Part shown: positions 1,391 through 24,786 of the stretch, piece by piece | How the letters are laid out: each line of letters begins with the position of its first letter | How positions within the stretch are numbered: position 1 is the stretch's first letter | Position numbers and translations under genes: made by a program | Notes under the pieces: model-generated | What the model saw: the letters and a program-made list of their open reading frames with translations, nothing else | What the model was told of the DNA's origin: nothing | Databases searched by the model: none | Source: an uncultured candidate division Zixibacteria bacterium | GTDB taxonomy: Bacteria; Zixibacteria; MSB-5A5; UBA10806 | Assembly: GCA_963817915.1 (NCBI GenBank) | Contig: CAWFQL010000016.1 | Span: 64,001 to 128,000, forward strand | Reading direction: 5' to 3' | DNA: 64,000 nt

Positions 1391-2863
1391 ATGGACAGAA
1401 TAAAGATGGTGGAGTTCAAAATGACTAAGAAAACTGTTGGCTTATTGATTTTAGGCGTGGCAATGCTAGCTGCTTCTGTTGGAGCGCAAGCTCCCGATAC
1501 TTTATGGACGAAAACATTCGGCGGAGCCTACAATGATGAAGCCTGGCAAGTGCAGCCCGCGTCCGACAATGGATTGATCGTAATTGGCGCCGGAATGCCA
1601 CAAAATTTTGGCAACTGGGACCTTCAACTAATCAAAACAGATGTCAATGGAAACGCGATTTGGACGAAAAACTATGGCGGACCCTTTGCCGAACAAGGCC
1701 GTGCGGTGCGCCAAACTCCGGATGGCGGATATATTGCGGTAGGCTGGAAAAGATCATCCGCCATAGGTGGAAAAGAAATATGGCTGCTCAAATTGAATGC
1801 GTCCGGCGATACACTCTGGACAAGAACATACAATGATTATACAGAGCAGGAAGCCCGAACAATCGAATTGACTCCTGATGGCGGATATCTTATGGCCGGT
1901 TGGGCAATTGCCGACTGGGAATCTTACGAGGATGTTTATATTATTAGGGTCGATTCACTGGGGAATGTGATCTGGAGAAAGAATTACGGCGGGGAGAATT
2001 CCCAAAAAGCATGGTCGGCGAAACCCACGTCCGACGGCGGCTATATTGTCGCAGGATGGACAGATAATCATCCGAACATCACTGGGATGTATATTATCAA
2101 GACTGATTCCAACGGCGATACTTTATGGACACGTATTTTTACTACGCAATTTACCTTTGCGGCTTCGTCAATACTGGAGACCGACGATCACCGATTCATT
2201 GTTGGTGGAAGTTTGAATGTCGAATGGAGTAATAATTTTAACGCGATACTTTTGTATTTGGACGATAGCGGCGATATCGATCATATGCGTTTTATGACAT
2301 TTGGCAAAATTTATTCTATCGCCAGGACTCGCGAAGGTGGGTTGATCATTGCTGGTACAATGGTAGATGATTTATCAAGCTCTATAATTGTCAGAACAGA
2401 TATAATGGACGGAGAATCCTGGATAAAGAACATCGGCGAAGCTCTGAATTCCAGGATTTCTGCCCGTTCGGCATTTCAGGCATCCGATGGCGGCTATGTA
2501 TTCACAGGCACTACAAAATCGTATCCTGAAAATATCGTTCTGGTGAAATTGGCTAACGAGACGACCTCTATCAATGGTGATCAAATAGGCACTTTGCCTG
2601 CTAAATTTACCCTCTCCCAAAACTACCCTAACCCGTTCAACGCCCAGACCTCGATCAATTACATCTTGCCGATCGCGAGCAATGTATCTGTCGGCATTTT
2701 CGATATCCTTGGTCGTAAATTGGCGACACTATATGATGGAAATCAGGAAGCAGGAAATCATCAGATTATATGGAATGCTAGCGAGCAATCATCTGGTATC
2801 TATTTCTATAGGATTCAGGTAGGCAATTATGCCGAGACTAAGAAGATGGTACTTCTGAAGTAA
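1391..2863 (+). CDS. Secreted beta-propeller-like protein with T9SS type A/FlgD-like C-terminal sorting domain
   Basis: Signal peptide (true start probably 1421); repeated GDTLWT/DGGYI blades; C-terminus LSQNYPNPFN...SGIYFYRI...TKKMVLLK. Confidence 0.85.
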   Translation: MDRIKMVEFKMTKKTVGLLILGVAMLAASVGAQAPDTLWTKTFGGAYNDEAWQVQPASDNGLIVIGAGMPQNFGNWDLQLIKTDVNGNAIWTKNYGGPFAEQGRAVRQTPDGGYIAVGWKRSSAIGGKEIWLLKLNASGDTLWTRTYNDYTEQEARTIELTPDGGYLMAGWAIADWESYEDVYIIRVDSLGNVIWRKNYGGENSQKAWSAKPTSDGGYIVAGWTDNHPNITGMYIIKTDSNGDTLWTRIFTTQFTFAASSILETDDHRFIVGGSLNVEWSNNFNAILLYLDDSGDIDHMRFMTFGKIYSIARTREGGLIIAGTMVDDLSSSIIVRTDIMDGESWIKNIGEALNSRISARSAFQASDGGYVFTGTTKSYPENIVLVKLANETTSINGDQIGTLPAKFTLSQNYPNPFNAQTSINYILPIASNVSVGIFDILGRKLATLYDGNQEAGNHQIIWNASEQSSGIYFYRIQVGNYAETKKMVLLK

Positions 2864-3016: not shown

Positions 3017-4481
3017 ATGGAGGTTTTTATGAATACTCTAAAGATATTATTTTTCGTTTTGGTATTGGCATTATGCTTATCAAATACAGCTTTCGCGCAG
3101 TTTGAAGAAGCGGTCTGGGATACATTGACTGCGGATACGCTTCAGGATGCTCTAACGTCGCAGGCGATTGGTGTCAATGGTTATGAGGAATTCCATCTGA
3201 CCTATGCCAAGGCAAGACCCTCCGGGAGTTGGAATATCTATTATCGCTATTTTAGCCTGTACAATGGCATGGATCAGGAAGTATTAGCCGAATCAAATAT
3301 CCCCTGTAACGTGCCCGTCATCGCTTCTCGATTTGGCGATAACGATTATGATATCGCGATAATATTCGAATCTGGAGAGGATATGTGGGGCTGTATCAAT
3401 CATGGACCGCACGAACCCTGGAGTTTCGTGAATGTGACCCATTCCAGCGATCCGGATTTTACGCCTACTGTGGCATTTAGCGCGAGTTATATGCATGCGG
3501 CCTGGATTACTTATACTAATTCAGAATACAAGATATGCTATCTCAGAATCCGAGAAGAAACCATGCTTCATGACACATTATTCGAATCGCAACTCGGTCC
3601 ATACGGCTCCGGCGCCAAACCGTTCATAATAGCGCCGCTTGATACTCCTCATATCTTCTACCGCGGCGTATCCGGCGACAATTACGGTATTCATCACGCC
3701 TATAAACCAAATCCTGACAGCAGTTGGGTAATTGAATACTTATCCACGCCTAACCTTGATGATTATTCAGCGTCAGCCGATATTGATATTCTTTGCAATA
3801 TCTATGTAGCCATTTCGGGTAATGAAGGCTGGGGGATGCCCGCGCATGTTTATAGCATGAAGCTCGATCACGATACTCATCAATGGTCGACTCCCCAACT
3901 TGTAACCGGACTATATTCAGCCACCAACGCCAGTATAATGACCCTAGCTACAGGAAAATCATTTGTTGCCAGTTGCGGGGTAAGCGGAAATGTCTACAAT
4001 GGAAATGTTTATCTCTCGTGCGATACTATTGGCAGTTTCCAGACTCAACTTCTGGCGTCATATCCATGGGTAACCCAGCCAGCAATAGGGAAAATTAACG
4101 GCGAGCATGCGGTAATCGTATTCGATGCTCCTATCGGCTCTGAAGAAAACCGCAATGTTGAATTAGTTTACTATGGTCCCCAAATGATGACCTCAATCGA
4201 TAGCCAACCTAAACCGGTGATGACCGGATTAAGCTCCTGCTATCCGAATCCATTTAATTCACGCACCAATATTCAATTTGAGATTACCCAGCCCGGCGAA
4301 GTTTCGTTGGAAATTTACGATCTGCTTGGCCGGAAGGTATCGTCACTGCTTAATGAAATTCTTTCAGCCGGCTGCTATAATATTAACTGGAACGCGATAG
4401 ACCGGCCATCCGGTGTCTATTTCTATAGAATCAGCGCGGGCGATAATGGTCGAGACGAAGAAGATGGTGCTCTTGAAGTGA
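3017..4481 (+). CDS. Secreted protein with C-terminal sorting domain; +1 frameshift near 4448
   Basis: Signal peptide; CYPNPFN...SGVYFYRISAGDN. The expected tail VETKKMVLLK* lies in the next frame (4449-4481). Confidence 0.8.
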
Positions 4482-4574
4482 TAATTTGAAGTCTCGAGCC
4501 CTAAACAAATTAAAATTCCCCATTTAGCCAGTCTGTAGTTTAATATCTTTATATATCAACAAATTAACATCTAT

Positions 4575-7220: not shown

Positions 7221-7402
7221 ATTTCGAATGGAAAATGCTCCCCGGAGCCGGTGATTCCCGAGCTTTGACTACTGAAAAAGCATTATTGTTGTGAGAGTAA
7301 ATTGCTCTCGCAGTATATAATTAATTAAAGATATGTTGAAATAATTCAATCAATCATATACAATTTCATCGAATGGTGTAATTTGGAATTATAAACTCTT
7401 AA

Positions 7403-7906
7403 TTGGAGGTTAGTTTGAAAAAGGTAATCTTAACATCGATGACGCTCGCGCTGGTTGCTCTCATTTTAATTCCGACGACTATCATGGCTCAAAGCAAACC
7501 AGTTCAGCTTGCGCTTTTCGCGCCTGTTCAGTTGTTTCCAGAGAATACTGCCATTTCCGGCATACGACTCAGCCTGATTTATGGTAAAAATACTTCAGTC
7601 ACCGGTTTGGATTGGGGTCTAATAAATCGCAACACATCAGGAATGTCGATGGGCGTACAATGGGGATTTGTAAATCTAAATGATGCCAGTTTCATGGGCT
7701 GGCAAGATGGCTTTGTGAATATCACCAGCAAAGACTTCCAGGGCCTTCAATGGGGATTTGTAAATTCCGCGAATAATGCTAAAGGATTGCAGCTCGGTTT
7801 TGTCAATTACACAAGAACACTTAAAGGCTTGCAGATCGGATTTATTAATATTATCAAGCAAGGCGGCCAATTCCCGGTCTTCCCTATTGTTAATTGGTCC
7901 TTTTGA
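7403..7906 (+). CDS. LA_2272-family surface repeat protein
   Basis: Signal peptide; tandem G(L/V)Q(W/L/I)GF(V/I)N repeats; C-terminal FPIVNWSF. Confidence 0.75.
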   Translation: MEVSLKKVILTSMTLALVALILIPTTIMAQSKPVQLALFAPVQLFPENTAISGIRLSLIYGKNTSVTGLDWGLINRNTSGMSMGVQWGFVNLNDASFMGWQDGFVNITSKDFQGLQWGFVNSANNAKGLQLGFVNYTRTLKGLQIGFINIIKQGGQFPVFPIVNWSF

Positions 7907-7956: not shown

Positions 7957-9282
7957 ATGAGTATGAGATCATTCAAATGGATTGGCCTATTGGGCTTAAC
8001 TATTTCGGCGATACTCGGCATTTCCGAGACTTCGAACGCGGTTCCCAGTTTTGCCCGACAGACCAATATGCCCTGCGCATCATGTCATTCGATTTTCCCT
8101 GAGCTAAATTCCTTTGGGAGAAATTTCAAGCTCAACGGATATACTCTTAATGCCGGTGAAGTTGTAGAATCGGCCGACAAGGATGGAAAAACGCTAATGC
8201 AATTTCCTAAATCCCCGGCGGTCTCCGCAATGATGATGGCCTCCCTCAGTCGAGTAAGTAAAGATATCCCTCAGACGCAAAACAACAATATCGATTTCCC
8301 ACAGCAATTTAGCATTTTTCTGGCCTCGCAATTGACACCGGAAATGGGCGCATTCATTCAGGCCACATACGATGATCAGGGCGCGGCCTTTTCAATGGAT
8401 ATGCTTGATCTTCGCTACGCCCATGAAACAACGCTCGGCGACAAGAGTCTTCTAATCGGCCTATCGTTGAACAACAATCCGGGCGCGCAGGATATATGGA
8501 ATACTGTGCCCGCCTGGAGTTTTCCATTTGGTTCATCGCCGGTGGCTCCAACGCCATCGGCCGCCGCGTTGATTGAAGGCGGCCTTGCTTCTGATGTTGC
8601 CGGGCTGGGACCGTATTTTGTCTGGAATAAGCGAATTTATGCCGAATTATCATTTTATCGATCTGCTCCGCAAGGCGGTTCGCATCCGCCGGATCAAAAT
8701 TCCCAGATGACAGTCAAGGGTTTGGCTCCATATTGGCGGTTGGCATATCAGCGGCTAAGCATGAACGATTATTTTGAAATAGGCACTTATGGCTTGAGCG
8801 CCAAATTATTCCCGAATGGAATCACCGGCGCGACGGATAAATACACGGATATCGCATTCGACGCGCAATATGAGCGCAAATTCGAAAAATCATCGCTGTC
8901 GGCTCATGCATTCTGGATTTTGGAAAACCAAAATCTCGCGGCAACATTCGGCGCGGGCGGCTCCGACTATGAAACCAATAAGCTGAATACATTGAAGATA
9001 AATGGCAATTATTATCTGGGACAGCATCTCGGTTTTACTTTGGGATACTTTGCCATAATTGGCGATAAGGATGGCATTTTATACGGCGACAACCAGACCG
9101 GGAAACCGGACAGCAACGGCCTTATCGGAGAGGTCGATTGGCTGCCCTGGCTGAACACGAAGTTTTCTATCCAGTATACCTTGTACCAAAAATTCAACGG
9201 CTCAGGAAATAATTATGACGGTTCGGGAAGAAACGCTTCGGACAATAATACTTTATATCTTTTGGCCTGGCTGGCGATCTAA
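7957..9282 (+). CDS. cyc2: Cyc2-like fused monoheme cytochrome c / outer-membrane porin
   Basis: Signal peptide then AVPSFARQTNMPCASCH..FPELNSFGRNFKLNGY (Cyc2 N-terminal signature); remainder amphipathic beta-strands ending YLLAWLAI. Confidence 0.8.
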   Translation: MSMRSFKWIGLLGLTISAILGISETSNAVPSFARQTNMPCASCHSIFPELNSFGRNFKLNGYTLNAGEVVESADKDGKTLMQFPKSPAVSAMMMASLSRVSKDIPQTQNNNIDFPQQFSIFLASQLTPEMGAFIQATYDDQGAAFSMDMLDLRYAHETTLGDKSLLIGLSLNNNPGAQDIWNTVPAWSFPFGSSPVAPTPSAAALIEGGLASDVAGLGPYFVWNKRIYAELSFYRSAPQGGSHPPDQNSQMTVKGLAPYWRLAYQRLSMNDYFEIGTYGLSAKLFPNGITGATDKYTDIAFDAQYERKFEKSSLSAHAFWILENQNLAATFGAGGSDYETNKLNTLKINGNYYLGQHLGFTLGYFAIIGDKDGILYGDNQTGKPDSNGLIGEVDWLPWLNTKFSIQYTLYQKFNGSGNNYDGSGRNASDNNTLYLLAWLAI

Positions 9283-9356
9283 AATTTGACCGTTTTTCAT
9301 TATTTTGGTCGAGATGAAACCTTTTGAACCTGTATAAGGTAGAAGTATGGTGATTT

Positions 9357-9905
9357 ATGAAGACGATGGCAGATTCATTAGGCGACATAAAGGAAAAGAG
9401 GATGCCGATGCGTGTTTTTGTAATGACAGTAATTGTATTTGGGTTGATCGGTGTGGCATCGGCCCAGAGTCAGGATAAAAGTAAATCCGATCCGCCGGCA
9501 AAAGCCGATACGACCAAAACAAAATCAGGCGTTTCAAAAGCAAAATCAACCCTTATCTCCGATGATAAAGGCATTGGGCCAATCAAAGAGATAAAACTCG
9601 GCGCCATAGATACCGCACTAGTGAGCAAGGGCGCGGAGCTCTTCAAATCAAAATGCGTAACGTGCCATCTGCTCGATAAGAAGAAATTGGCTCCGCCGTT
9701 GAGAGATATAGTCAAGCAGAGAACTCCCGAATTCATCATGAATATGATTATAAATACAGAGGAAATGCAGAAAAAAGACGCGGAAGTCAAAAAGCTGATC
9801 GATGAGTACCAGACATATATGACTATTCTCGATTTGAACAAAGACCAGGCTCGCAGCTTGCTGGAATTTCTCAGGGAATCGTCAGAACATCCACCGGGAA
9901 ACTGA
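9357..9905 (+). CDS. Periplasmic monoheme cytochrome c (start probably 9402 or 9408)
   Basis: Signal peptide; KGAELFKSKCVTCH...PEFIMNMI...YM distal Met. Confidence 0.88.
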   Translation: MKTMADSLGDIKEKRMPMRVFVMTVIVFGLIGVASAQSQDKSKSDPPAKADTTKTKSGVSKAKSTLISDDKGIGPIKEIKLGAIDTALVSKGAELFKSKCVTCHLLDKKKLAPPLRDIVKQRTPEFIMNMIINTEEMQKKDAEVKKLIDEYQTYMTILDLNKDQARSLLEFLRESSEHPPGN

Positions 9906-10217
9906 TTTTGGCAGGCACCGGCCATGCCAAAAAATTAACATTTATTGATACTCGAAAAATTCCTAAATAAATAGCTTGATTTATCAATAATAACTGCTAT
10001 TATTATACGGCCGATAAAGGTATTCGTAGATATTAGGATACCTCGCTATTTCTTTTAAAACATAATATTAAACTATTTTTTAAATTTGTTTTTAGTAATG
10101 CTATTTTTATTAAAAATGGCATTCCATTGCTAATCATACGCTTAATAAGGAGGTCAAGGAAAATCAGAGAAATCGACCAACGCTCCTGATATTATTACAT
10201 CAAAATAGAATATTAAC

Positions 10218-10646
10218 ATGGAGAATACCATGGAAGAAATCGATCAGAAAGACGAATGGGCCGAAAAAGGGGCTCGAGTTACGGCGCGGATATTGGTGTT
10301 GTTGTGGGCGTTAGGATGGATGTTTTTTGGCTTTATTACGGGTGTCGGAGAAGGTCTTGGAATAAAAGAAATCATTAGCCACGTCTCGATGCCGGGCTTA
10401 ATATTTATGTTAACAGCGTTAATCGCTTATAAATGGGAATTCATGGGTGGTGTTATGCTTCTGCTTGAAGGCGCAGCGGCAATGGTATATTTCATATCGC
10501 AAATTAGCAGGATATCATTTGTAGGATTTTATTTTGTTTTATATTCCGGTACGCTACCGGCAATTTTTATGGGATTTCTTTTCCTTTATAGCTGGAGAAA
10601 AAGCAGAGAATATCAGACAGGTCAAACAGGCCAAATTACGGCCTGA
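10218..10646 (+). CDS. 4-TM membrane protein of unknown function
   Basis: Four hydrophobic segments. Confidence 0.7.
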   Translation: MENTMEEIDQKDEWAEKGARVTARILVLLWALGWMFFGFITGVGEGLGIKEIISHVSMPGLIFMLTALIAYKWEFMGGVMLLLEGAAAMVYFISQISRISFVGFYFVLYSGTLPAIFMGFLFLYSWRKSREYQTGQTGQITA

Positions 10647-10676
10647 AAATCGATCAACTCCGGCACGAAATAAAAG

Positions 10677-10702
10677 GACGCAACCTGATATCAGATTGCG
10701 TC
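10677..10702. terminator. Hairpin between convergent genes
   Basis: GACGCAACCTGA-TA-TCAGATTGCGTC. Confidence 0.5.
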
Positions 10703-10728
10703 AGCAGTATATCATATTTTTTTTAGTA

Positions 10729-11931
10729 TCAGGCTGGCGTTGTCGACTTTGATTCGGCCCAGGGTGGAAATAGTTTAGTCAATACGAATAGTATTGCGAA
10801 GGGCAGCAACAGCAATACGCAGACCATAAGTATACCTTCAAGACCGAACAATTCTGTTTTATAGACAGTCAATCCCCGCAGGCTCTTTGAAAATAGCTGG
10901 CCGCCGAGTACGACATTCCATCGAGTGCTGAATATTCCCACCTGCACAAGCAAAGCGGCCATGAAATAAACCATTCTTCTCATCTCATCGGGTACTTTCC
11001 CGAAACGAGCCCAGACCAATGACAGCATTGGAAGAATGCTTCCGAGAATAATCTGAGTGATTATAAGACTTATAAACAGGCGATTAGAAATCATCGATGA
11101 AAGTATATTAATGGATTCTTCGGATTCATAAAGCCTTTGAATAAAATCGAGAAATTCCAAAGAGAAATCGACTATCATTGCGTAAAGGAGAAGCTCAGCA
11201 AGCTTGTTAAGACATTGCATGCTGATCTCTTTCCATCGAAACATGGAAGTGACCACATAAATAATAAGTATCAGAGCTATACCCGAAACAATAGCGGAAA
11301 ATAAGAACACTATAGGCATTAGAACGCTGCTCCACCAGGGATTGGCCTTAATGGAACCGAAGATAAATCCGACATATCCATGAAGCAGAAATGCCGAGGG
11401 TATACCTATAATAGTTATAGCCTTGCCTACCTTATCATCCCACTTAATCGCTTTATCGGATACGTCAGTAGCGCCGAGGGTAAGAATCTTATATACAAAT
11501 TTGGTAAAACCGGTTTTGGTTTTCGACCAGCCTACTATATCCTTGCGATAGTCCAACCAGATTTCCAAAAGCAGCACGACCATCAGGTACCACGCATATA
11601 CAAACCCGAACATGGCCATAGCTGATTGGGTATGCGGGGTCAGAAACATTTCAAATGATCTTTCAGGGTGTCCGAGATGGGCCAGAAGCGGCATCGGGGC
11701 CACAAACAAAAACGCCAGCGCGGATAGCAATGACAAACGATAAACCGGCTTAAGGGCCTTAACATTGAAAACTCGTTCCAGCGAGGCCAATATGAATGCG
11801 CCGGCGACAAGTCCAGTAAGATAGGGGTATAGTACTATGAGAAGACCCCAATGCAATTCGAATTCATTGGGATAAATATATCCGACTATATCTTGAAAAT
11901 TCGGAGTTAGATTAGCGATAAGAGGCAGCAT
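10729..11931 (-). CDS. nrfD: NrfD/PsrC-family quinone-interacting membrane subunit
   Basis: WGLLIVLYPYLTGLVAGAF, HLGHPER, HGYVGFIF...PWW; about 10 TMs. Confidence 0.9.
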   Translation of the reverse strand: MLPLIANLTPNFQDIVGYIYPNEFELHWGLLIVLYPYLTGLVAGAFILASLERVFNVKALKPVYRLSLLSALAFLFVAPMPLLAHLGHPERSFEMFLTPHTQSAMAMFGFVYAWYLMVVLLLEIWLDYRKDIVGWSKTKTGFTKFVYKILTLGATDVSDKAIKWDDKVGKAITIIGIPSAFLLHGYVGFIFGSIKANPWWSSVLMPIVFLFSAIVSGIALILIIYVVTSMFRWKEISMQCLNKLAELLLYAMIVDFSLEFLDFIQRLYESEESINILSSMISNRLFISLIITQIILGSILPMLSLVWARFGKVPDEMRRMVYFMAALLVQVGIFSTRWNVVLGGQLFSKSLRGLTVYKTELFGLEGILMVCVLLLLPFAILFVLTKLFPPWAESKSTTPA

Positions 11932-11934
11932 ATT

Positions 11935-12714
11935 TTACCTAACCTCCCCGTCAGTACCGGCATAGTATACCTTTGGCTTCGTATTCAAGGATGGCTTAAG
12001 CTCCGCAACGTCATTGAATCTTAGGAATCGTCTTAATGGGCTCGAACGGAGCCCAATCTCTCCGAATATTCTCGCTTGTGTCGGACAGACCTCTACACAG
12101 GCCGGCAATAAGCCCTTCGTGATTCTGTGATAGCAGAATGTACATTTATCGGCAACTTTCTTTGTTGGATGCAAGAAGCGCGCGCCATAAGGGCAGGCTT
12201 GAATACAGTAACGGCATCCGACGCAGTATTTTTCATCGACAAGAACTACCCCGTCGCGAGTGGCGAAGGTCGCTCCAACCGGGCAAACCTGCACGCATGG
12301 CGGATTAGCGCAATGATTACATAATTTTGGTACAAAGAATGTTCTCAGAATATCGACATCGCTTTTGATATCAGGATATCCATCGATTCCACCGTTGGGA
12401 CTGTCGACGACCGTATCGCCGGTGGTCGGTATTATATATCGTTCAACCCATGTGCGGAAATAGTATGGGTCGAGAGGTACATTGTTTTCTTTTTTGCACG
12501 CTACGGCGCATCTGGCGCATCCTATACATTTATGAATATCGATGCCCATCGCGTAATTATGCTGTGTGGGGTCGTAAGTATCAGACTCCTGTGCCTTAAG
12601 AATTTCGCCCGCGCTCATGGGGAAAAAGAAAAAACCGGCGGCCAAAGGCAGTGCCTTTGAACAGGAGATCAGGAATTTTCGTCGATCCGTATCTTTTATA
12701 TCATCGTCTTTCAT
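11935..12714 (-). CDS. Tat-exported 4x[4Fe-4S] NrfC/PsrB-like subunit
   Basis: ATG at 12714 overlaps upstream TAA; DRRKFL twin-arginine motif; CIGCARCAVAC, CNHCANPPCVQVCP, CVGCRYCIQACP, CTFC...PACVEVCP. Confidence 0.92.
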   Translation of the reverse strand: MKDDDIKDTDRRKFLISCSKALPLAAGFFFFPMSAGEILKAQESDTYDPTQHNYAMGIDIHKCIGCARCAVACKKENNVPLDPYYFRTWVERYIIPTTGDTVVDSPNGGIDGYPDIKSDVDILRTFFVPKLCNHCANPPCVQVCPVGATFATRDGVVLVDEKYCVGCRYCIQACPYGARFLHPTKKVADKCTFCYHRITKGLLPACVEVCPTQARIFGEIGLRSSPLRRFLRFNDVAELKPSLNTKPKVYYAGTDGEVR

Positions 12715-13454
12715 TAAGCCTCCGGTGAATGCGGGTAATGACAATCCCAGCATTTATAGCGTTCCCAGTGAGTCACGAGATCTATTCGAGGAATTTCTCG
12801 AGGGCTATTGGCATCTTTGGAATGACATTGCCCGCAGAATTCGCGATTTTCAGGTTTCCCGGGCAATGATTCTTTTGGATTTTTCAGATGCTCATCGGAA
12901 ACAGTATGACATTTTGTACATGCCAGCGATACGTGGGGCGATACATTTTTTTCATTGGATATTTCGCGATGGCAAGCGCTGCAATCTTGCGGAGTGCGAG
13001 GAAGCATAGGATTATGCGGATTATGGCAGCTCATACAGGGTTTACCCGGATTATGTACGGCAGGCAGTATCTGAGGAAAACCTGTCGGCCTTGATGGATT
13101 GTACCCGTGGCAAACAGGACAAAATTCTCGTTCTCTGGGCGCGCTTGGAGTGAATTCATCCGGCGCCTCCGCATGCTTGGCGGCGGCATTATGGCAGACT
13201 TCGCAGGACAGGGCGCTATGATTCGATTTGGATTTGAGATCATTTACATCTGAATGGCATTCGATGCAGGTTTTTGATCCGGCATATTGAATAGGAAGCG
13301 ACGCGATTTCGTTGACGGCATCAGCGCGGTAATACCCATATTTGCCAAATGATTTTGGAACTAGAATAGACCTCGCAACAATTAGGGCTGTTAAAAATAA
13401 GGCAAAAAGAATGATTAAGCTAATAAGTTGCTGGGGTATCTTTGGGGTCTTCAA
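12714..13454 (-). CDS. Membrane-anchored octaheme cytochrome c
   Basis: N-terminal TM; 8 CxxCH (CIECH, CEVCH, CPVCH, CMSCH, CSACH, CTKCH, CGQCH, CWDCH). Confidence 0.92.
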   Translation of the reverse strand: MKTPKIPQQLISLIILFALFLTALIVARSILVPKSFGKYGYYRADAVNEIASLPIQYAGSKTCIECHSDVNDLKSKSNHSALSCEVCHNAAAKHAEAPDEFTPSAPREREFCPVCHGYNPSRPTGFPQILPAVHNPGKPCMSCHNPHNPMLPRTPQDCSACHREISNEKNVSPHVSLACTKCHTVSDEHLKNPKESLPGKPENREFCGQCHSKDANSPREIPRIDLVTHWERYKCWDCHYPHSPEA

Positions 13455-14723: not shown

Positions 14724-15489
14724 AAAATAAAGCACTTATAATAGGGCTAATTCTGGTATTGAATTCGACCTGTCTGGCAGACAGGTTTGAATATATAAGG
14801 AATGTCAACCGCCAGAACCGGATGACGATTCCACGGGGGTACGAGATACTATTTTCGTTTCCGAGCATATCCAGATCCAGGATATTAATTTCTATGTCGG
14901 AGTCGGGGTTCCTGAATCTCCCTCGGCGGAAGACGCGTTAATTGATGTTTTTTTCCCTGCAAGGCAAAGGGTTAGACTAAATGACTGGGAAGGCCCCAGA
15001 ATTCCTTGGTACGATGTCTGGTACGATACCCAACGGCAAGTAGACGGGCCCGGCAGTCTGCAGGATTACAATGGAGGCGATTCTTATGGCCCATGGGAGA
15101 TGTTTTGCTTCGACCCCTTCTGGGATGATTCGTTATTTTGGTATTCATGGAGAATAGAGATTTACGGCGATCTCATAACGGGAATCTCTGAGCCAAAATC
15201 GAATATGCCATCGGACTATACGTTTAGTCAGATTTATCCCAACCCATTTAATAATTCAATCATGATAGAATTTGGATCGCCGGAAAACGGCGAAATCAAT
15301 ATCGACGTCTTCGATATCCTTGGAAGACAAGTTAGAACGATATTAAATTCTACTGTAAGCACCGGTTATCATAGTATCGTATGGTATGGGGTCGATTCGT
15401 CCGATAGACCCGTATCATCCGGAGTCTATCTAATCAGGTTGACCGCCCGCGACAAAAATATTGTCCAAAAGGCGACCCTGCTCAAGTAA
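14720..15489 (+). CDS. Signal peptide + proprotein-convertase P-domain-like fold + C-terminal sorting domain; frameshift near 14808
   Basis: The frame of ORF 15100 extends upstream as PEPDDDSTGVRDTIFVSEHIQIQDINFYV...GPGSLQDYNGGDSYGPWEMFCFD; signal peptide is in ORF 14720; tail IYPNPFN...SSGVYLIRL...KATLLK. Confidence 0.7.
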
Positions 15490-15686: not shown

Positions 15687-16646
15687 ATGAAAAATGGTCT
15701 AGCAATGGAGATTCAAATGAAGAAAATATGGGTCATTATCATCATTGAGGCGCTAATAATTGGAATATTTGCCATTAATACCCAAGCCTGTTCCGTATGT
15801 CGTTGCGGAGATAATGCTTTTCTATTTTCGGAAAAGGGCTATGCACTGCCAGGCCAATCGCCTGACAGGCATTTTCTTTTCAGCCTCGCAAATATTTACT
15901 CCACGAAATCAAATGCTCTGGCACCCGACGAAGGATCTGGAATTGAACGTCAGAGGGAGACGCGTCCGTCCTTAAGACTCACTTATAATCTTTCCGAACG
16001 ATTATCATTTTCATTCGAGACGCCAATTCAATTCAGGAGAATTGAGACTTCAATGCCTTCAGGAACAAATCGAGAAAACTCTTTTGGCCTTGGTGACGCC
16101 GATTTATCCGCAATTTGGATGACTAATTTGGCAGGCGGAGATGGAACATTCATAAATGGCGGTCTGTCGTTTGATCTGAAAGTCCCTACGGGCCGAAATA
16201 ATTTATCGAGAGATAGCGAACGTCTGGATGAACATCTACAGGCCGGAACCGGCAGTATCGATTGGCAGGCGGGCGTGGCGGTAGCCAAATCGACCTGTTC
16301 AAATCAGATTTTTTCAAGCATATATTATCGTCATAATGGCGAAAATAAATTCGATTATCATTATGGCAACGCAATCATTTTTAATTTGGGGTCGCAATGG
16401 CCATTTACAACCTGGTTCAGCGGCTCAATTCAGGCTAATAACCGCTATGCGAAACGGGACATTGAGAATAGAACGATCGTCGAAAATACCGGTGGCTGGG
16501 TATCTTATTTGACCCCGGGATTGAGATTCAATTTAAATGAAAGCGCCGGGCTTTATGCGGCACTTCAAATTCCTGTTATTCAGAAGCTTTATGGAAGTCA
16601 GACCGAGAAGGCCGTCTTTGCCAGCGGTGTAAGTGTCGGATTTTAG
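15687..16646 (+). CDS. Outer-membrane beta-barrel (MetA-pathway/transporter family) with N-terminal CxxCxC
   Basis: Signal peptide then ACSVCRCG; GLGDADL, LKVPTG, LQAGTGSID; C-terminal Phe. Confidence 0.75.
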   Translation: MKNGLAMEIQMKKIWVIIIIEALIIGIFAINTQACSVCRCGDNAFLFSEKGYALPGQSPDRHFLFSLANIYSTKSNALAPDEGSGIERQRETRPSLRLTYNLSERLSFSFETPIQFRRIETSMPSGTNRENSFGLGDADLSAIWMTNLAGGDGTFINGGLSFDLKVPTGRNNLSRDSERLDEHLQAGTGSIDWQAGVAVAKSTCSNQIFSSIYYRHNGENKFDYHYGNAIIFNLGSQWPFTTWFSGSIQANNRYAKRDIENRTIVENTGGWVSYLTPGLRFNLNESAGLYAALQIPVIQKLYGSQTEKAVFASGVSVGF

Positions 16647-16932: not shown

Positions 16933-18960
16933 ATGAATAAGCTATCATTGAAACTCAAGCTGACTCTAATCTTTTTGCTAAGTTTGACAGTTGTTTTCTC
17001 GCTTATGGTCACCATGAATTATTCCAATCAGAGCAAAGACATCTCGGGAATGTACAACGAAAATTCCAAAAATCTGGAATGGCTATTTGATAATCAAATC
17101 AAGCTGATGATGAAGACCGGAAATAACGACCAGCTGCAGACGCTTTTTGATGAAGTAAAAGGCTTGGGCATGGTCAGCGATATATCCATATTGAACGATA
17201 AAAGAATTGTCGCGCGTTCAACCGATAAGGCGGCAATAGGAATGCCAGCGACGGACCCACTATGGGACAAGGTTTATCAAACCGAAAAAAGCCTTTCAGT
17301 CGAATCGAATATTGATGGAAAAGAGATCGTCTCCGAATATCAATTATTAATGAGTGAAAAAGCCTGTACCGATTGCCACGGAGAAAACGAAAAAATTCTC
17401 GGCGGATTGAAAATAGTGACTTCGAAAGAAAAACTGCAATCGGCACTGAAAAGCAATCTGTTTTCCAATATCCTGGTAGCCATATTAGGCGGCCTTATTC
17501 TGGCATCGATAATTTATTATATCTGGGGATCAAAAGTATTCAAGCCGCTTGATGATGTCAGACGCAAACTCGATAAAGCCGTAAAAGGCGATATAAATCA
17601 GAATATCAAACCAAAATCAAAGGATGAAATTGGCCGACTGTTAATCTCGATTCGCGACCTGATAGAATATGTCCGAGGTAAGGCCAAAGCGGCATCGGAA
17701 ATGGCCCGCGGCAATGTTGATGTTGAGATTGAAATAGCTTCCGAAGATGATTCATTAGGCAAGGCCATGAATACAATGAGGAGTTCTATTCAAGGTCTGG
17801 TTCATGAAGGAACTCTGCTCTCGAATGCCGCCGTAAACGGAGATCTAACTGTACGAGGAAAGGTCGATGGTTTCGAAGGCGGGTATCTTGAAATCATAAA
17901 AGGCATGAATCAAACATTTGATAATATGGGGCGACCAATCAATGAGGTTATCCAATGTCTGGCTGAAATGAAAAGCGGAAATCTTACCGCGTATGTCAGC
18001 GGCGATTATAAGGGCGATTTTGCTGAGATTAAAAATGCTCTCAATAGCACGCTGGATTCATTAAATGATATTCTTGGCCAGGTGGCGGCAGCCGCCGATC
18101 AGGTGGCAACCGGATCGCGACAAGTATCTGATGCCAGCCAGTCATTATCACAAGGCGCGACCGAACAAGCCAGTTCGCTTGAAGAAATTACGGCTTCATT
18201 GACGGAGATGACCGAGCAAACCAGGAAGAATGCCAACAATGCCTCCAACGCTAAGAATCTGGCATCATCGGCAAAAGATAACGCCGGTAAGGGCAATCAG
18301 CAGATGCAGGAAATGCTGGCCGCGACCAAAGAGATTAGCGAATCGTCCGCAAAGATTTCCAAAATTATTAAGGTCATCGATGAGATTGCATTCCAAACAA
18401 ACCTTCTTGCCCTTAACGCCGCAGTTGAGGCAGCAAGAGCCGGAGTTCATGGCAAGGGTTTCGCGGTTGTGGCAGATGAAGTAAGGAATCTCGCTCAAAG
18501 AAGCGCCAAGGCTGCCAAGGAAACGACCGAGCTTATTGAAGGTTCGTTGAAGAAGGTGGACAATGGCTCTCGAATTGCCGACGACACTGCCAAGGCATTA
18601 GGAGAAATCGTCGAAGGCGTCACAAGAGCCGCCGAGCTTGTAGCTGAAATCGCCAATGCTTCCAATGAACAGGCCCAGGGTATCGAACAGGTAAGCCAGG
18701 GTATCGGACAGATCGATCAGGTTACTCAATCGAATACCGCGAGCGCGGAAGAAAGCGCATCGGCATCCGAAGAATTATCGGGACAAGCAACCTATTTGAA
18801 AGAGCTTATTGCGAAATTTAAGCTTGCAACCCAAGACAATAACCAGAAAAATACCGAGGAATTTCTTGATAATTTCTCAAAAAACTTAAACCAAAAAAAT
18901 CCTAAAACAAAGGCAGTCCAGGCATTCGCCATGGATAGGAATAGCTTCGACAAATCTTAG
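16933..18960 (+). CDS. Methyl-accepting chemotaxis protein with heme-c periplasmic sensor
   Basis: 2 TMs; CTDCH in periplasmic domain; HAMP domains; [20 protein letters not shown]. Confidence 0.93.
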
Positions 18961-19070: not shown

Positions 19071-20783
19071 CTAGAACTTATGCGAATAATTTATGTTAGC
19101 GGTATTTTCATTGAATTTACCGCCCGCAGAGCTTTTATCCTTAAATGAAGAATACTTGACGCTGAGTTTGATCGAATCTGAAGTCCTGATCGCATAGGCA
19201 GATTGGGCGGTAATTGAAAAGATACTGGATTGTTTTGAACTTGAAACATCCGAACTCAGAGAGCTGTTCAGCTTCCCCTTCTTCATCCTGTTGTTTATTC
19301 TCATCGAGATAGAATTGTTCGAGTTTTTGGGCTGACCGCTGGTTTCGGTGCTGTTGGTTGCGAAACCCGGCGAAACAGACCATGATGGGTTTATAGTCGT
19401 AGTCAACGCCACTGAAATATTCTGCGATTTGACATCGCTGCCCGCGTTCGCCGCTCGAACAATATTGTTATCCTTGGAGCTTTGAGCGGCGTAATTCAAC
19501 GATAACGCATTAGCAAAATTAAATAGCGAGAATTGGAAGATCGCGCCCGCAGAATATCCCGAATTAAGATTGTCTATTTTTGACGAATCACTGGCGGCGT
19601 CATTTTTCATAGTATTTTGCATGTAATTAAAATTGAATCCGGCAAATTGGACAGGGCGGATATTCAATGTCCCGCCGTAGGTGTAGCGGGTGGTTGTAAA
19701 TAATTTCTGCTTGATCACGTTATCGTTTTGGGTCTGGAAATTACCCTGAATTGAGATTTTGCTCTGGAATAATCGCAAACCGGCCCCTGCTTCGATTAAT
19801 CGTTTGTCATTGATCGTGGAGCTAATCCCAAGAGAAGTGAAACCCGGGCCGACATATGTATAAGCTCCTTTAATATCAAAAATCCTATGATTGAATACAA
19901 GCTCAGAAGTATATGCAACATCAACGTTGGAGGAAATTCGAGGGGTGAAATATTTCTTCAATGACGATGGATACCCTTTGATATCCTGAGGCGTACTGGA
20001 AATATCCCTGGTGTAAGCGGTCGCGGCGGCCTCACCCTTGAATGTTAGCATTTTTCTGAATAAGCGGACTTCCGTATTGGCTCCGGCCACTATGTTTTCC
20101 TTTGCGGTTACTCCGTATTGGCCGGAAGTCGCTGTATCCGCACTGGTGCTATCGCGTTGGAAAATATCTTTGGGCAATGATTTGGCACTGTCTTTTGTTT
20201 GGACGAGATTGATATCAAAAAAGGATGAGCCCGTCTTGCCGATCCCTAATTTGACTCCACCCATATAGCGAGCGTACGCCGAGCCATATGGGCCGGCTTT
20301 TATCGCCCGTTGAGTCTGTCCTCCCACAGCTTGAAATCTGAGAATTCCCGGATTAAGAGTCAATCCCGCGCCGCGAATAGAAATTCCGTTGAGTGTATAT
20401 CGCGAGAAATCCTGGCTGAAATCGCCGAGATTGGCCGAACCCCATCCCCATGATGGATTAAGCGCAAACTGATTGATTTGCTGGCGCGCGGAGCTTCCCT
20501 CGGTAGAAAGGGTGATATCGAATGACATCCCGAATTTACCAAAGAGCGTAATGGTCGGCCTAAAAAACAGCCTTCCTGTCGAACTTGGACGCCGGGCTGG
20601 CCGTCCAGAAATTGAGTAAAGCTCACCGAATGTGCCAATTTCGCCAGACAATCTGAAGATAGGATTTCTCCTCTTGGGAGTTATAGGAGCATTTTCGGAG
20701 GATTGAGCCCAAAGCATGGCATTGGGTAATCCCAAACCCGCTATAAATAGCAGGCACACTGCAAATCTTGATAGTCTTTTCAA
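19071..20783 (-). CDS. Large outer-membrane beta-barrel protein
   Basis: Signal peptide; continuous amphipathic strands; C-terminal NINYSHKF; TTGA overlap with upstream gene. Confidence 0.8.
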   Translation of the reverse strand: MKRLSRFAVCLLFIAGLGLPNAMLWAQSSENAPITPKRRNPIFRLSGEIGTFGELYSISGRPARRPSSTGRLFFRPTITLFGKFGMSFDITLSTEGSSARQQINQFALNPSWGWGSANLGDFSQDFSRYTLNGISIRGAGLTLNPGILRFQAVGGQTQRAIKAGPYGSAYARYMGGVKLGIGKTGSSFFDINLVQTKDSAKSLPKDIFQRDSTSADTATSGQYGVTAKENIVAGANTEVRLFRKMLTFKGEAAATAYTRDISSTPQDIKGYPSSLKKYFTPRISSNVDVAYTSELVFNHRIFDIKGAYTYVGPGFTSLGISSTINDKRLIEAGAGLRLFQSKISIQGNFQTQNDNVIKQKLFTTTRYTYGGTLNIRPVQFAGFNFNYMQNTMKNDAASDSSKIDNLNSGYSAGAIFQFSLFNFANALSLNYAAQSSKDNNIVRAANAGSDVKSQNISVALTTTINPSWSVSPGFATNSTETSGQPKNSNNSISMRINNRMKKGKLNSSLSSDVSSSKQSSIFSITAQSAYAIRTSDSIKLSVKYSSFKDKSSAGGKFNENTANINYSHKF

Positions 20784-24776: not shown

Positions 24777-24786
24777 GGCCCCTCCC

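Follow-up and report, generated by a model that had tools for sequence, protein, structure and literature searches.

The 64,000-nt stretch of DNA analysed here (the window) carries genes for a Cyc2-like protein and a cytochrome c that converge with genes for an octahaem cytochrome, an FeS protein and an NrfD-type subunit (Table 1), and it raises the question of whether these genes encode one electron path between the cell surface and the quinone pool. An earlier note on this DNA postulated such a path, cautioning that distant Cyc2 homologues are unproven and that the genes belong to two separate transcription units. Both caveats proved apt, and all six genes were found where the note had placed them.

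Table 1. Features of the locus and the evidence for each, in window coordinates.
Feature	Position	Strand	Basis
LA_2272/VC2662-family repeat protein with signal peptide	7403..7906	+	NCBIfam VC2662_fam 89.3 bits (cut-off 140), LA_2272_repeat 51.6 bits (cut-off 25)
Cyc2-family fused monohaem cytochrome-porin (predicted)	7957..9282	+	441 aa; motifs, AlphaFold2 fold, Foldseek
Periplasmic class-I monohaem cytochrome c	9357..9905	+	182-aa ORF; PF00034 31.7 bits (cut-off 21.3); one CXXCH
DUF7670 small polytopic membrane protein	10218..10646	+	PF24709 48.8 bits; hydrophobic segments
Terminator-like hairpin (11-bp stem, 6 G-C pairs, then T-run) just past the NrfD stop	10677..10702	-	Consensus scan
NrfD-family integral membrane subunit, 10-helix ActC type, 400 aa	10729..11931	-	PF03916 127.9 bits
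Tat-exported 4x[4Fe-4S] ferredoxin-like subunit of the NrfC/PsrB/DsrO/QrcC kind	11935..12753	-	Fer4_11 98.7 bits
Octahaem c3/c7-type cytochrome, 246 aa, membrane-anchored (or Sec-exported)	12714..13454	-	Eight CXXCH; PF14522 49.6 bits, PF09699 36.9 bits

By published criteria and predicted fold, the 441-aa protein belongs to the Cyc2 family of fused cytochrome-porins, with haem loading and localisation likewise predicted. It shows all the features by which Cyc2 is defined in PMC8406198: the motif AXPXFAR[Q/K][T/Y], a CXXCH, PXL at +4, a porin and no fewer than 365 aa. A signal peptide ending in SNA is followed by the haem region, AVPSFARQT-x3-CASCH-x3-PEL, and then by the outer-membrane beta-barrel; the signature reads A28-V-P-S-F-A-R-Q-T36, C40ASCH44, P48-E-L50 and F53GRNFKLNGY62, and the protein contains one CXXCH and two Cys in total. 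When 97 diverse relatives (32-53% identical) were aligned, Q35, C40, C43, H44, L50, G54 and F57 were invariant and A28, P30, R34, T36, P48, R55, K58 and Y62 were at least 90% conserved; consequently, the signature is a family feature rather than the product of chance. The protein has no match in Pfam, NCBIfam or the PDB sequences. In the AlphaFold2 model (mean pLDDT 94.8, pTM 0.89), 18 DSSP strand elements make the barrel, and the top Foldseek matches in the PDB (E 6e-9 to 1e-6, probability 1.00) are all outer-membrane porins: Omp-Pst2, OmpU, AlgE, OprP 2o4v and OprO 4rjx. The earlier claim of a Cyc2 signature on a beta-barrel, for which a barrel prediction had been proposed as a check, is thus borne out. 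The C-terminal residue is Ile; in seven of seven relatives' sequences inspected, it is aromatic or Met.

The same set of features (signal peptide, motif, single CXXCH, PXL at +4, about 440 aa and an OprO/OprP-like barrel) is shared with the Cyc2 proteins of A. ferrooxidans, Leptospirillum (Cyt572) and Mariprofundus ferrooxydans PV-1 (PMC8406198). However, the closest relatives of the window protein (at most 59% identity) are found in Ignavibacteria, Bacteroidota and Calditrichota; these, like Gemmatimonadota, where near relatives also occur, are not known iron oxidisers, and neither an oxidase nor a rusticyanin gene lies beside the window gene. MtrCAB, MtoAB and Geobacter Pcc also carry electrons across the outer membrane, but there a decahaem or similar cytochrome threads a barrel that is large and separate, whereas here a single haem would be fused to a barrel of 16-18 strands. 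Such a fused single-haem barrel, as Keffer et al. argue (PMC8406198), is suited to Fe2+ in solution rather than to solid substrates.

The cytochrome c gene begins 74 nt downstream, much as cyc2 is followed directly by the small cytochrome c gene cyc1 in the rus operon (as given in PMC13741234). Its product, which the earlier note rightly took for a periplasmic monohaem cytochrome, consists of a signal-peptide-like hydrophobic stretch, a linker rich in Lys, Ser, Thr and Pro, and a haem domain with CVTCH at residue 100; the true start is probably Met16 or Met18. The neighbourhood was compared with 79 related Cyc2-like loci, each at most 55% identical to the window protein and all from outside the window's own lineage. 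In 48 of these, a short ORF with a single CXXCH is found no more than 800 bp from the Cyc2-like gene and on its strand, and tblastn found homologues of the window cytochrome c (35-57% identity) in 35. By the ORF criterion, then, the gene for the monohaem cytochrome c is conserved as a partner of the Cyc2-like gene. On the other side, the LA_2272/VC2662-family gene, which has no homologue in the 79 loci, ends 50 nt 5' of the Cyc2-like gene and may be co-transcribed with it; a promoter-like site lies nearby at 7336-7364, such sites being no more frequent than in shuffles.

Sequence and model comparisons support the view that the three minus-strand genes, which form an operon, encode a cytochrome-FeS-NrfD module that faces the periplasm and is of a type that interacts with quinones. 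The octahaem cytochrome has a hydrophobic N-terminus (an anchor, residues 5-37) and about 30 residues per haem, and near its gene, at 13676-13648, is a second promoter-like site of the same shuffle-level frequency. It has 518 homologues at E<=1e-3; its top non-self matches are 56-73% identical, nearly all about 247 aa long and mostly from sources named Zixibacteria, as are most of the non-self NrfD matches listed (75-86% identical). The FeS protein carries the twin-arginine motif DRRKFL, and its 17 Cys fall into four ferredoxin-type groups; its most likely start is the ATG at 12714, since this overlaps the octahaem stop (TAATG) and is preceded by GGAGG. Its top PDB sequence match is PsrB (2vpw_B, 173.5 bits). 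None of the NCBIfam equivalogs reached cut-off for any of the three proteins: the FeS protein scored 215 bits for TtrB (cut-off 416), 186.4 for DsrO (200), 158 for NrfC (378) and 96.5 for QrcC (400), and the module also gave 56 bits for DsrP (350) and 47 for NrfD (348).

For the NrfD subunit, the AlphaFold2 model (pLDDT 77.4, pTM 0.81) is best matched by ActC of ACIII (8k9e_C and 6btm_C; TMq 0.68), PsrC (2vpw_C) reaching a TMq of just 0.35, and the PDB matches of the family profile are ActC chains only (E 4.5e-31 to 6e-26). In our residue mapping of the profile alignment, for which the quinol-site residues listed in PMC8076601 were used, H85, S103, R65 and R337 pair with ActC His139, Ser164, Arg119 and Arg395, and the gating Arg and the His and Ser of the quinol site would therefore be retained. 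In contrast, Ile190 stands opposite ActC Asp253, and most N-side channel residues of ActC are not conserved. A quinone/quinol site in this subunit is presumed.

Several known complexes resemble this module in part. Like ACIII (ActABCDEF), it joins a multihaem cytochrome c to an FeS module with four clusters and to an NrfD-like subunit of 10 helices, the last with ActC-type fold, profile and key residues; however, the molybdopterin-like ActB1 domain, ActD, ActE and ActF are missing, and the cytochrome is octahaem rather than pentahaem. QrcABCD, the menaquinone reductase of sulphate reducers, and the Nhc, Hmc and Ohc complexes (Nhc and Ohc by description) likewise bring together an FeS subunit, a multihaem cytochrome in the periplasm and an NrfD-like subunit with 10 helices, and they work, as outlined in PMC8076601, between periplasmic cytochromes and menaquinone; unlike QrcABCD, the window has no QrcB-like subunit, and its QrcC score falls under the cut-off. 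Periplasmic and membrane subunits of these three kinds also make up the DsrJOP part of DsrMKJOP, for which the DsrO score is a near-miss, and the NrfBCD part of NrfABCD, but neither DsrMK, NrfA nor any other catalytic partner is present in the operon or the window.

In the model proposed here, which is given a probability of roughly 0.45, the pair and the octahaem-NrfCD module would form one surface-to-quinone path; we infer each electron-transfer step in it, as well as the coupling. The Cyc2-like protein would hold its one c-type haem within the porin barrel of the outer membrane and, with the soluble monohaem cytochrome c, would make up a two-gene unit by which electrons pass one at a time between periplasm and cell surface. 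A stripped-down ACIII/Qrc/Nhc-like cytochrome c:menaquinone oxidoreductase would be encoded by the three genes converging on this unit: the octahaem would be a "wire" facing the periplasm, the FeS protein, with its four clusters, would be exported by Tat, and the ActC-type NrfD, with its 10 helices, would hold the quinone site. With the small cytochrome c as the shared carrier, electrons would pass in either direction along surface, Cyc2-like haem, cytochrome c, octahaem, FeS and (mena)quinone.

Inward flow is slightly favoured, outward flow being nearly as likely. If inward, Fe(II) would be oxidised at the surface, and the NrfD module would be a quinone-level branch, like bc1 or ACIII in the iron-oxidiser model. 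In the established form of that model, Cyc2 passes electrons to a periplasmic cytochrome c and thence to an oxidase, or to complex III/ACIII working in reverse, and the two schemes thus share a haem in the outer membrane, a carrier in the periplasm and a membrane complex at the quinone level (as described in PMC7029218 and PMC13741234). However, the complex in the window is neither bc1 nor a full ACIII, the corresponding genes are generally not adjacent in the model organisms, and the hosts of the related loci belong mostly to lineages seen as heterotrophs, where reverse electron flow to NAD+ would be without obvious purpose. Small multihaem cytochromes of the c3/c7 type are usually low-potential. 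The sole neutrophilic Cyc2 with a measured potential lies at +208 mV (PMC8406198). With these two values in view, neither direction of flow offers an obvious, simple downhill chain.

A link between the pair and the quinone pool is suggested by the related loci. In 16 of the 79, the pair adjoins another quinone-pool complex, most often on the same strand. Rieske and cytochrome b/dihaem c genes account for 12 of these cases (10 downstream on the same strand, in L009 behind a second Cyc2-like copy; one upstream on the opposite strand in L075; and one convergent, in L034, as in the window), and in the other four a QrcABCD-like cluster (pentahaem, molybdopterin-like, FeS and NrfD) directly follows the pair on the same strand. 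Unbiased clustering of 888 neighbour ORFs placed the bc-type and Qrc-like families as the commonest after the Cyc2-like protein and cytochrome c themselves, and of the Rieske ORFs, 13 are at most 3 kb from the index gene, in 439 kb of sequence, compared with one in the 810 kb farther out. That lone distant ORF comes after a second Cyc2-like copy. All 16 linked loci fall in a 43-row clade of the Cyc2-like tree that includes the window protein, and within this clade the bc label needs at least eight changes, which argues that the link is not one inherited accident. As the pair is recurrently found beside complex-III-type modules, the octahaem-NrfCD variant would be the module of this kind here.

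Evidence against one path comes from the same survey and from the locus itself. The octahaem has no homologue in any of the 79 loci, where four QrcA-like proteins are the only other cytochromes with at least five haems within 6 kb of the Cyc2-like gene; weak FeS/NrfD matches occur in just three loci (L055, L069 and L077), as members of the Qrc-like cluster. Thus, the synteny in relatives that the earlier note had proposed as a check was found in these loci for the pair but not for its linkage to the octahaem. The module does lie within about 1 kb on the other strand, as claimed, the NrfD and cytochrome c stops being 823 nt apart. Between these convergent, separate transcription units are the DUF7670 gene, which has no homologue in the 79 loci and whose product is probably outside the electron-transfer system, and the hairpin; the scan that gave the latter found 10 terminator-like sites versus 6.5 +/- 3.0 in shuffles. 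Furthermore, the module is conserved on its own. In best-120 match lists, the octahaem and NrfD share 25 contig-length fingerprints beyond the window's, some from contigs of only 3.5-4.4 kb, while by this heuristic no contig but the window's own is common to the Cyc2-like list and the octahaem/NrfD lists; megabase contigs are present in both, yet none is shared. With its nearest relatives in Ignavibacteria, Bacteroidota and Calditrichota, against mostly Zixibacteria names for the module, the Cyc2-like protein has a different apparent history from the module. For the path postulated earlier, the outcome is therefore mixed: the pair's place beside other quinone-pool complexes speaks for it, and the octahaem's absence from relatives, the convergent units and the lack of shared best-120 contigs speak against it.

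These last observations would also be expected of two independent neighbouring systems, a lesser but real possibility, in which the pair feeds Fe(II) electrons to an oxidase or bc complex encoded elsewhere, and octahaem-FeS-NrfD is the lineage's general quinol:periplasmic-cytochrome oxidoreductase (or the reverse), with other partners. The units are never linked in the relatives, an unrelated gene and a terminator-like hairpin separate them, and the module is kept on many contigs without a top-ranking Cyc2-like gene. In addition, the Cyc2 operons of model organisms are tied to cytochrome oxidase genes and not to NrfD modules, the A. ferrooxidans rus operon being given as cyc2-cyc1-cup-coxBACD-rus (PMC13741234). 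However, chance adjacency to a quinone-pool complex is unlikely because the same pair adjoins such complexes in relatives, confined to about 3 kb. A Pfam scan of 42 window ORFs yielded neither an oxidase nor a Rieske or cytochrome b gene, and CXXCH occurs elsewhere in the window only in a chemoreceptor and in a 77-aa frame. Were the path instead a respiratory outlet of a heterotroph and not an iron oxidase, the NrfD module would oxidise menaquinol and electrons would leave through the octahaem, cytochrome c and Cyc2-like haem to an acceptor dissolved outside the cell, for instance chelated Fe(III). bc complexes normally run from quinol to cytochrome c. The co-orientation of the pair with bc-type complexes in relatives is consistent with such an outlet, but it is considered the less likely reading: the biochemically tested Cyc2 homologues in PMC7029218 and PMC8406198 (A. 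ferrooxidans Cyc2, Leptospirillum Cyt572 and M. ferrooxydans PV-1 Cyc2) all oxidise Fe(II), one buried haem at about +200 mV would be a poor reductant of most Fe(III) minerals, and Qrc, the nearest analogue of the four Qrc-like clusters, acts as a quinone reductase (PMC13059093).

It is very improbable that the protein is a non-respiratory haem porin, active at the outer membrane in, for instance, iron uptake, sensing or detoxification, with the cytochrome c merely poising its haem. With 3348 representatives of 50%-identity clusters at E<=1e-3, the family is indeed very large, and it occurs in organisms not known as iron oxidisers (PMC7029218), and in L002 a gene for an Nramp divalent-metal transporter comes after the pair. 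Nevertheless, the repeated operon-like linkage with cytochromes c and with complexes of the bc and Qrc-like types indicates a role in respiratory electron transfer, and iron oxidase activity has biochemical precedent in all three Cyc2 clusters as set out in PMC8406198 and PMC7029218.

Cyc2 homologues have already been reported in the lineages concerned; consequently, the interest of the locus is moderate. If the single surface-to-quinone path is correct, the octahaem-NrfCD module would replace the Rieske/cytochrome b or Qrc-like complex that adjoins the same pair in relatives.

The 441-aa Cyc2-like protein falls into no family of Pfam or NCBIfam and has no sequence match in the PDB even at E ≤ 10; the ESM Atlas offers just clusters labelled 'cytochrome c family' and one weak pointer to Porin_O_P (20% of members). 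Given the lack of a Pfam, NCBIfam or PDB sequence match, the published criteria for Cyc2 were applied to it. The accessible sections of Keffer et al. (PMC8406198) define Cyc2 by AXPXFAR[Q/K][T/Y], called unique to Cyc2, upstream of a single CXXCH, by PXL four residues past the CXXCH, and by a length of at least 365 aa (the minimum in the FeGenie paper is 375 aa); the porin is predicted there to have 16 strands and to resemble OprO/OprP. In the window protein the string reads AVPSFARQT-NMP-CASCH-SIF-PEL. The first motif is present as A28-V-P-S-F-A-R-Q-T36, and C40ASCH44 is the sole CXXCH, with two Cys in the whole protein; the T36-to-C40 spacing is three residues, the accessible wording of PMC8406198 being '5 amino acids upstream'. 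H44 is followed by S-I-F and then P48-E-L50, and an N-terminal hydrophobic leader, a putative signal peptide, ends in SNA. Across an alignment of 97 relatives that are merely 32-53% identical to the protein, the motif residues (AXPXFAR..CXXCH..PXL) are invariant or nearly so: Q35 and L50 are invariant, and A28, P30, R34, T36 and P48 are at least 90% conserved.

AlphaFold2, supplied with the same alignment, predicts a barrel (mean pLDDT 94.8, pTM 0.89) with 18 DSSP strand elements (elements, rather than strands counted on the coordinates), and the top Foldseek matches in the PDB are all outer-membrane porins, including OprP (2o4v_A, TMq 0.50) and OprO (4rjx, TMq 0.47). The earlier note had staked its reading on such a barrel, which the prediction and the porin matches bear out, and its description fits the haem motifs and cysteines counted here (one CXXCH in each plus-strand cytochrome, eight in the 246-aa octahaem protein, 17 Cys in the FeS protein). 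As judged from sequence and predicted fold, then, every testable feature of Cyc2 is present in the 441-aa protein, and the gene is a new member of a known, very large family (3348 representatives of 50%-identity clusters at E ≤ 1e-3; 408 at E ≤ 1e-30). Because the available text of a report of FeGenie surveys (PMC8478452) already lists Cyc2 genes in Ignavibacteriales and iron-oxidation genes in Zixibacteria, the presence of the gene here is not new in itself.

Coordinates of the two converging gene groups and of other features in the window
Feature	Position	Strand	Remarks
490-aa protein	1391-2863	+	type IX secretion C-terminal sorting domain
490-aa protein, adjacent	3017-4489	+	type IX secretion C-terminal sorting domain
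LA_2272/VC2662-family repeat protein	7403-7906	+	ends 50 nt before Cyc2-like gene
Cyc2-like protein, 441 aa	7957-9282	+	AAGGAGG upstream of start
Monohaem cytochrome c, 182 aa	9357-9905	+	starts 74 nt downstream of Cyc2-like gene
DUF7670 membrane protein	10218-10646	+	312-nt gap after cytochrome c gene
Terminator-like hairpin	10702-10677	-	directly after NrfD; a lead only
NrfD	11931-10729	-	
FeS protein	12753-11935 (annotated)	-	17 Cys; DRRKFL twin-arginine motif
Octahaem cytochrome, 246 aa	13454-12714	-	eight CXXCH
129-aa ORF	15100-15489	+	type IX secretion C-terminal sorting domain
319-aa protein	15687-16646	+	signal peptide; N-terminal CSVCRCGD; C-terminal ...SVGF
Methyl-accepting chemotaxis protein	16933-18960	+	MCPsignal, HAMP and Mcp40H-20_sensor domains; 3.5 kb from octahaem operon
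Large genes	19071-36059	-	570 aa, 682-aa TPR, 722-aa fn3-domain, 1653 aa, 2081 aa

On the plus strand, the surface-repeat gene of the LA_2272/VC2662 family may have a promoter in common with the Cyc2-like gene. On the minus strand, the longest ORF of the FeS protein overlaps the octahaem gene by 40 nt; its true start is most likely the ATG at 12714, which overlaps the octahaem stop as TAATG (12712-12716, minus strand), is preceded by GGAGG and places the twin-arginine motif 9 residues from the start. From the sequence at this junction, the octahaem and FeS genes are probably translationally coupled. A promoter and terminator scan was no richer than shuffles (15 vs 17.4 promoter-like and 10 vs 6.5 terminator-like elements), and the G+C of the genes, 0.42-0.48 against 0.448 for the window, shows no sign of recent transfer in composition.

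The other frames with a CXXCH in the 64-kb window are just a 77-aa frame and the chemoreceptor, whose single motif (CTDCH, at about residues 144-148) lies in the periplasmic sensor region between two hydrophobic segments; this receptor is a candidate haem-c redox sensor. The 319-aa protein encoded ahead of it matches nothing in Pfam or NCBIfam, and its nearest Atlas clusters are outer-membrane transporters of the 'MetA-pathway of phenol degradation' type (PF13557 in 13-85% of members), so that it is probably a small outer-membrane barrel. The type IX sorting domains fit an organism of the Fibrobacteres-Chlorobi-Bacteroidetes group. Of the large minus-strand genes, those for the 1653-aa and 2081-aa proteins have almost no recognisable domains, and the whole run may be a cell-surface or secretion-related cluster.

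The minus-strand module contains a compact cytochrome of the c3/c7 type (PF14522, PF09699) with an N-terminal hydrophobic anchor, an FeS protein of the NrfC/PsrB/DsrO/QrcC kind, and an NrfD subunit. For the FeS protein, the best NCBIfam models are TtrB (215) and DsrO (186), both below cut-off, and its highest-scoring PDB sequence is Thermus PsrB (2vpw_B, 173.5 bits). The NrfD subunit scores 127.9 bits with PF03916 (cut-off 25.8), and its AlphaFold2 model (pLDDT 77.4, pTM 0.81) has 9-10 long helices. Both the NrfD signature and the arrangement of the ActC type, which has two four-helix bundles and two extra helices (10 TMH), are found. The best fold matches are to ActC of alternative complex III (ACIII; TMq 0.68), the match to the 8-helix PsrC being partial (TMq 0.35). 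As a single query the protein finds nothing in the PDB, and the family profile alone succeeds, returning ActC chains only, almost full length, at E 4.5e-31 to 6e-26.

The available part of Calisto and Pereira (PMC8076601, Table 2) gives His139, Ser164, Asp169 and Asp253 as quinol-site and ion-path residues of ActC and Arg395 as the proposed gate. With the profile alignment mapped by eye onto these residues, ActC His139, Ser164, Arg119 and Arg395 correspond to H85, S103, R65 and R337 of the NrfD protein, which are invariant or nearly so in its family. In the same by-eye mapping, Asp253 aligns with Ile190, Asp169 falls inside an ActC insert, and one of the seven ActC N-side residues in the stretch is kept, namely Arg119 as R65.

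By its sequence, the module resembles a cytochrome c:quinone oxidoreductase that lacks a catalytic or molybdopterin-like subunit, and its composition is closest to the ACIII core, to the menaquinone reductase Qrc without QrcB, to DsrJOP and, by description only, to the Nhc type. None of its proteins reaches the cut-off of a curated NCBIfam equivalog model. ACIII comprises ActB with a molybdopterin-like domain, a second NrfD-like protein (ActF) and ActD/ActE; in contrast, this is a three-gene operon, and no molybdopterin domain or second NrfD occurs in the window ORFs scanned. Relative to QrcABCD, a QrcB-like gene is absent, QrcC scores 96.5 against a cut-off of 400, and there are no QrcA or QrcD matches. 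Relative to DsrMKJOP, DsrO reaches 186.4 of 200 and DsrP 56.1 of 350, with no DsrMK-like gene in the window; relative to NrfABCD, NrfC reaches 158 of 377.6 and NrfD 46.8 of 347.6, with no NrfA-like gene in the window. The likeness to Hmc is a weak, partial HmcA match (30.7 bits, cut-off 400). Given the missing subunits and the scores under cut-off, the idea that the module is a complete ACIII, Qrc, DsrMKJOP or Nrf system was rejected.

The module has close homologues elsewhere. Among the non-self matches listed, those of NrfD are 75-86% identical and those of the octahaem cytochrome 56-73% identical and nearly all about 247 aa long; the few source names among the matches listed are mostly Zixibacteria. 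By a heuristic comparison with figures copied by hand, the top-120 octahaem and NrfD lists have 25 apparent contigs in common besides the window's own, and since some of these span only 3.5-4.4 kb, the octahaem and NrfD genes are adjacent elsewhere too.

Whether the two gene groups travel together is a separate matter. A scan of species-representative genomes, using a closer alignment of 29 rows, gave 593 confirmed relatives of the Cyc2-like protein, and the best 80 (79 loci) were kept; these share 43-55% identity with it and belong to Ignavibacteria, Bacteroidota, Gemmatimonadota, Calditrichaceae, Binatia and a few other groups. In tblastn searches, the window's cytochrome c has homologues in 35 of the 79 loci and the FeS and NrfD proteins have weak ones (32-33% and 22-23% identity, respectively) in three; homologues of the octahaem cytochrome, of DUF7670 and of the LA_2272-like protein occur in none of the 79 loci of the best 80 of 593 relatives. 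The synteny that had been proposed as a check on a common path was thus not seen, the window's Cyc2-octahaem-NrfD neighbourhood being conserved in 0/79 related loci by tblastn. The DUF7670 and LA_2272-like genes were ruled out as members of the system on the same count. This test says little about the window's own lineage, of which those loci include no close relative. Furthermore, when the top-120 matches of the Cyc2-like protein are set against those of the octahaem and NrfD proteins, the sole contig in common is the window's own, of 454,093 nt (a heuristic comparison); both sets include megabase contigs. The closest named homologues of the module are Zixibacteria (56-86% identity across the octahaem and NrfD lists, among the matches listed), and those of the Cyc2-like protein are at most 59% identical, the named ones being Ignavibacteria and Bacteroidota. 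Such sequence relationships hint that the Cyc2-like/cytochrome c pair has a history different from that of its neighbours.

An indirect test looks at what adjoins the Cyc2-like gene in its relatives. ORFs were called in all 79 loci (best 80 of 593 relatives), and the neighbours of the index gene, the Cyc2-like gene of each locus, were examined. A small ORF with one CXXCH lies within 800 bp on the same strand in 48/79 loci (40 downstream, 8 upstream), and tblastn adds a further one, L002. In 12 of the 79, the pair adjoins a Rieske protein and a cytochrome b fused to a dihaem cytochrome c (bc-type). This complex is downstream on the same strand in ten loci (L001, L003, L007, L008, L015, L024, L040, L047, L051 and L009, in the last of which it comes after a second Cyc2-like copy), convergent with the pair in L034, as in the window, and upstream on the opposite strand in L075. 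In another four (L055, L069, L077 and L074, which is truncated at the end of its contig), the genes after the pair, in the same orientation, encode a pentahaem cytochrome, a molybdopterin-like protein, an FeS protein and NrfD; the best NCBIfam models for these Qrc-like clusters are QrcA, QrcB, QrcC and DsrP/QrcD, all under cut-off.

Label-free clustering of 888 ORFs, all within 6 kb, gave Cyc2-like (75 loci), cytochrome c (34), cytochrome b-dihaem c (14, some of them joined via the cytochrome c domain alone) and Rieske (12) as the commonest families, the next being an M13 peptidase (8). An internal control compared sequence near the index gene with sequence farther away: the 439 kb within 3 kb of it contain 13 Rieske ORFs, two of them in L048, which is without cytochrome b, and the 810 kb beyond contain one, located after the second Cyc2-like copy in L009. 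A maximum-likelihood tree was built from 73 locus proteins and the window's (six loci were dropped by an ORF filter); on it, all 16 linked loci fall within a 43-row clade of Ignavibacteria, Bacteroidota and Calditrichota, in which the window protein also sits, at the end of a long branch. At least eight changes of the bc label are needed on this tree, and the four Qrc-like loci form one clade; in the Gemmatimonadota/Binatia clade, 0/31 rows are linked to a quinone-pool complex. Complexes of more than one kind, all exchanging electrons between the quinone pool and periplasmic cytochrome c, recur next to the pair. By analogy, the window would add a third kind of module to this pattern, which raises the odds that the adjacency there is functional.

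The surroundings of the pair vary in other ways. An additional Cyc2-like gene, sharing 46-51% identity with the window's, is present in L008 (5233-6546), L009 (11624-12964) and L013 (2217-3458), and in L008 and L009 the Cyc2-like/cytochrome c unit is tandem-duplicated, since each copy has its own small cytochrome c. Near the pair, five loci (L008, L009, L032, L040 and L045) also encode another monohaem cytochrome c together with a dihaem protein of 380-416 aa (e.g. L009 8051-9890), a set that lies after the pair in four and ahead of the index gene in L008; the dihaem protein carries a reaction-centre-cytochrome domain (PufC-like, 'c_type_nonphoto'), making a longer periplasmic cytochrome set. 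In L002, the Calditrichaceae locus whose protein is closest to the window's on the tree, the gene after the pair encodes an Nramp divalent-metal transporter (12034-13341, plus strand; PF01566, E 1e-126), which ties the pair to iron/manganese handling, not respiration.

In the accepted model of iron oxidisers, as given in the accessible parts of PMC7029218 and PMC13741234, Cyc2 passes electrons to a periplasmic cytochrome c and on to a terminal oxidase, or uphill via bc1 or ACIII to the quinone pool. The window arrangement would be this scheme with a different quinone-level module. Our main reading is that the pair and the module form a coupled chain, running in either direction, and we tentatively put its probability at roughly 0.45. 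Of the surface-to-quinone path through both gene groups proposed in the earlier note, the general part has gained ground, the pair adjoining quinone-pool complexes in 16/79 relatives; its specific partner, the octahaem module, is found at none of the 79. The latter result favours the view that the two units are mere neighbours, uncoupled, and the former speaks against it; this is a real possibility, if not one toward which we lean.

If the chain is coupled, electrons from Fe(II) flowing inward would climb to menaquinone by analogy with known iron oxidisers. A proton-motive-force-assisted step is conceivable, because it is with the 10-helix type of NrfD that ion translocation is linked in the available text of PMC8076601; a limit is that the ActC pathway is conserved in part only in the window's NrfD. 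Outward flow, with menaquinol oxidised and the Cyc2-like haem reducing a soluble acceptor, would be about equally plausible. It matches the normal direction of bc complexes and suits the heterotrophic lifestyle ascribed to Ignavibacteriales in the accessible part of PMC8478452, but is contrary to every biochemical result on Cyc2 so far. A broader, joint reading would go beyond the coupled chain. In Ignavibacteria, Bacteroidota and this Zixibacteria organism, Cyc2-type monohaem porins would not be primarily iron oxidases but the outer-membrane end of a modular chain from a quinol-oxidising complex (bc, Qrc-like or octahaem-FeS-ActC-like), a minimal single-haem route by which ordinary heterotrophs trade respiratory electrons with redox compounds dissolved outside the cell; the octahaem-NrfCD operon would then be an undescribed, widespread 'mini-ACIII', the lineage's complex III. 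We consider this unlikely.

A literature search, which was not exhaustive and reached some sources in part, found nothing on Cyc2 genes adjoining bc, Qrc-like or NrfD modules in phyla of the Ignavibacteria/Bacteroidota type, and the available portions of PMC12442345 and PMC10654088 yielded nothing on Ignavibacteria, Bacteroidota or NrfD. An equally non-exhaustive search found no work joining Zixibacteria, NrfD and multihaem proteins. The route from Cyc2 through cytochrome c to a quinone-level complex is a textbook model and not new. What may be new is that, in Ignavibacteria and Bacteroidota, the pairs are linked in an operon-like manner to bc and Qrc-like complexes, and that the octahaem-FeS-ActC-like genes make up a conserved three-gene unit without a match in any curated family.

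No marker of microbial iron oxidation is used more widely in metagenomes than Cyc2. To our knowledge, most of its homologues belong to organisms never shown to oxidise iron, and the missing piece for these homologues is knowledge of the protein's redox partners within the cell. The octahaem-FeS-NrfD operon, conserved and without a curated equivalog, may encode a simple and tractable energy-coupling complex of the NrfD type. If the pair is regularly coupled to swappable quinone-pool complexes (bc, Qrc-like or octahaem-NrfCD) in abundant heterotrophs of sediment and the subsurface, surveys that equate cyc2 with an iron oxidiser need a second look; the Cyc2 picture would be extended by such findings, not overturned. 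If true, electrons may pass from dissolved iron to such lineages or the other way.
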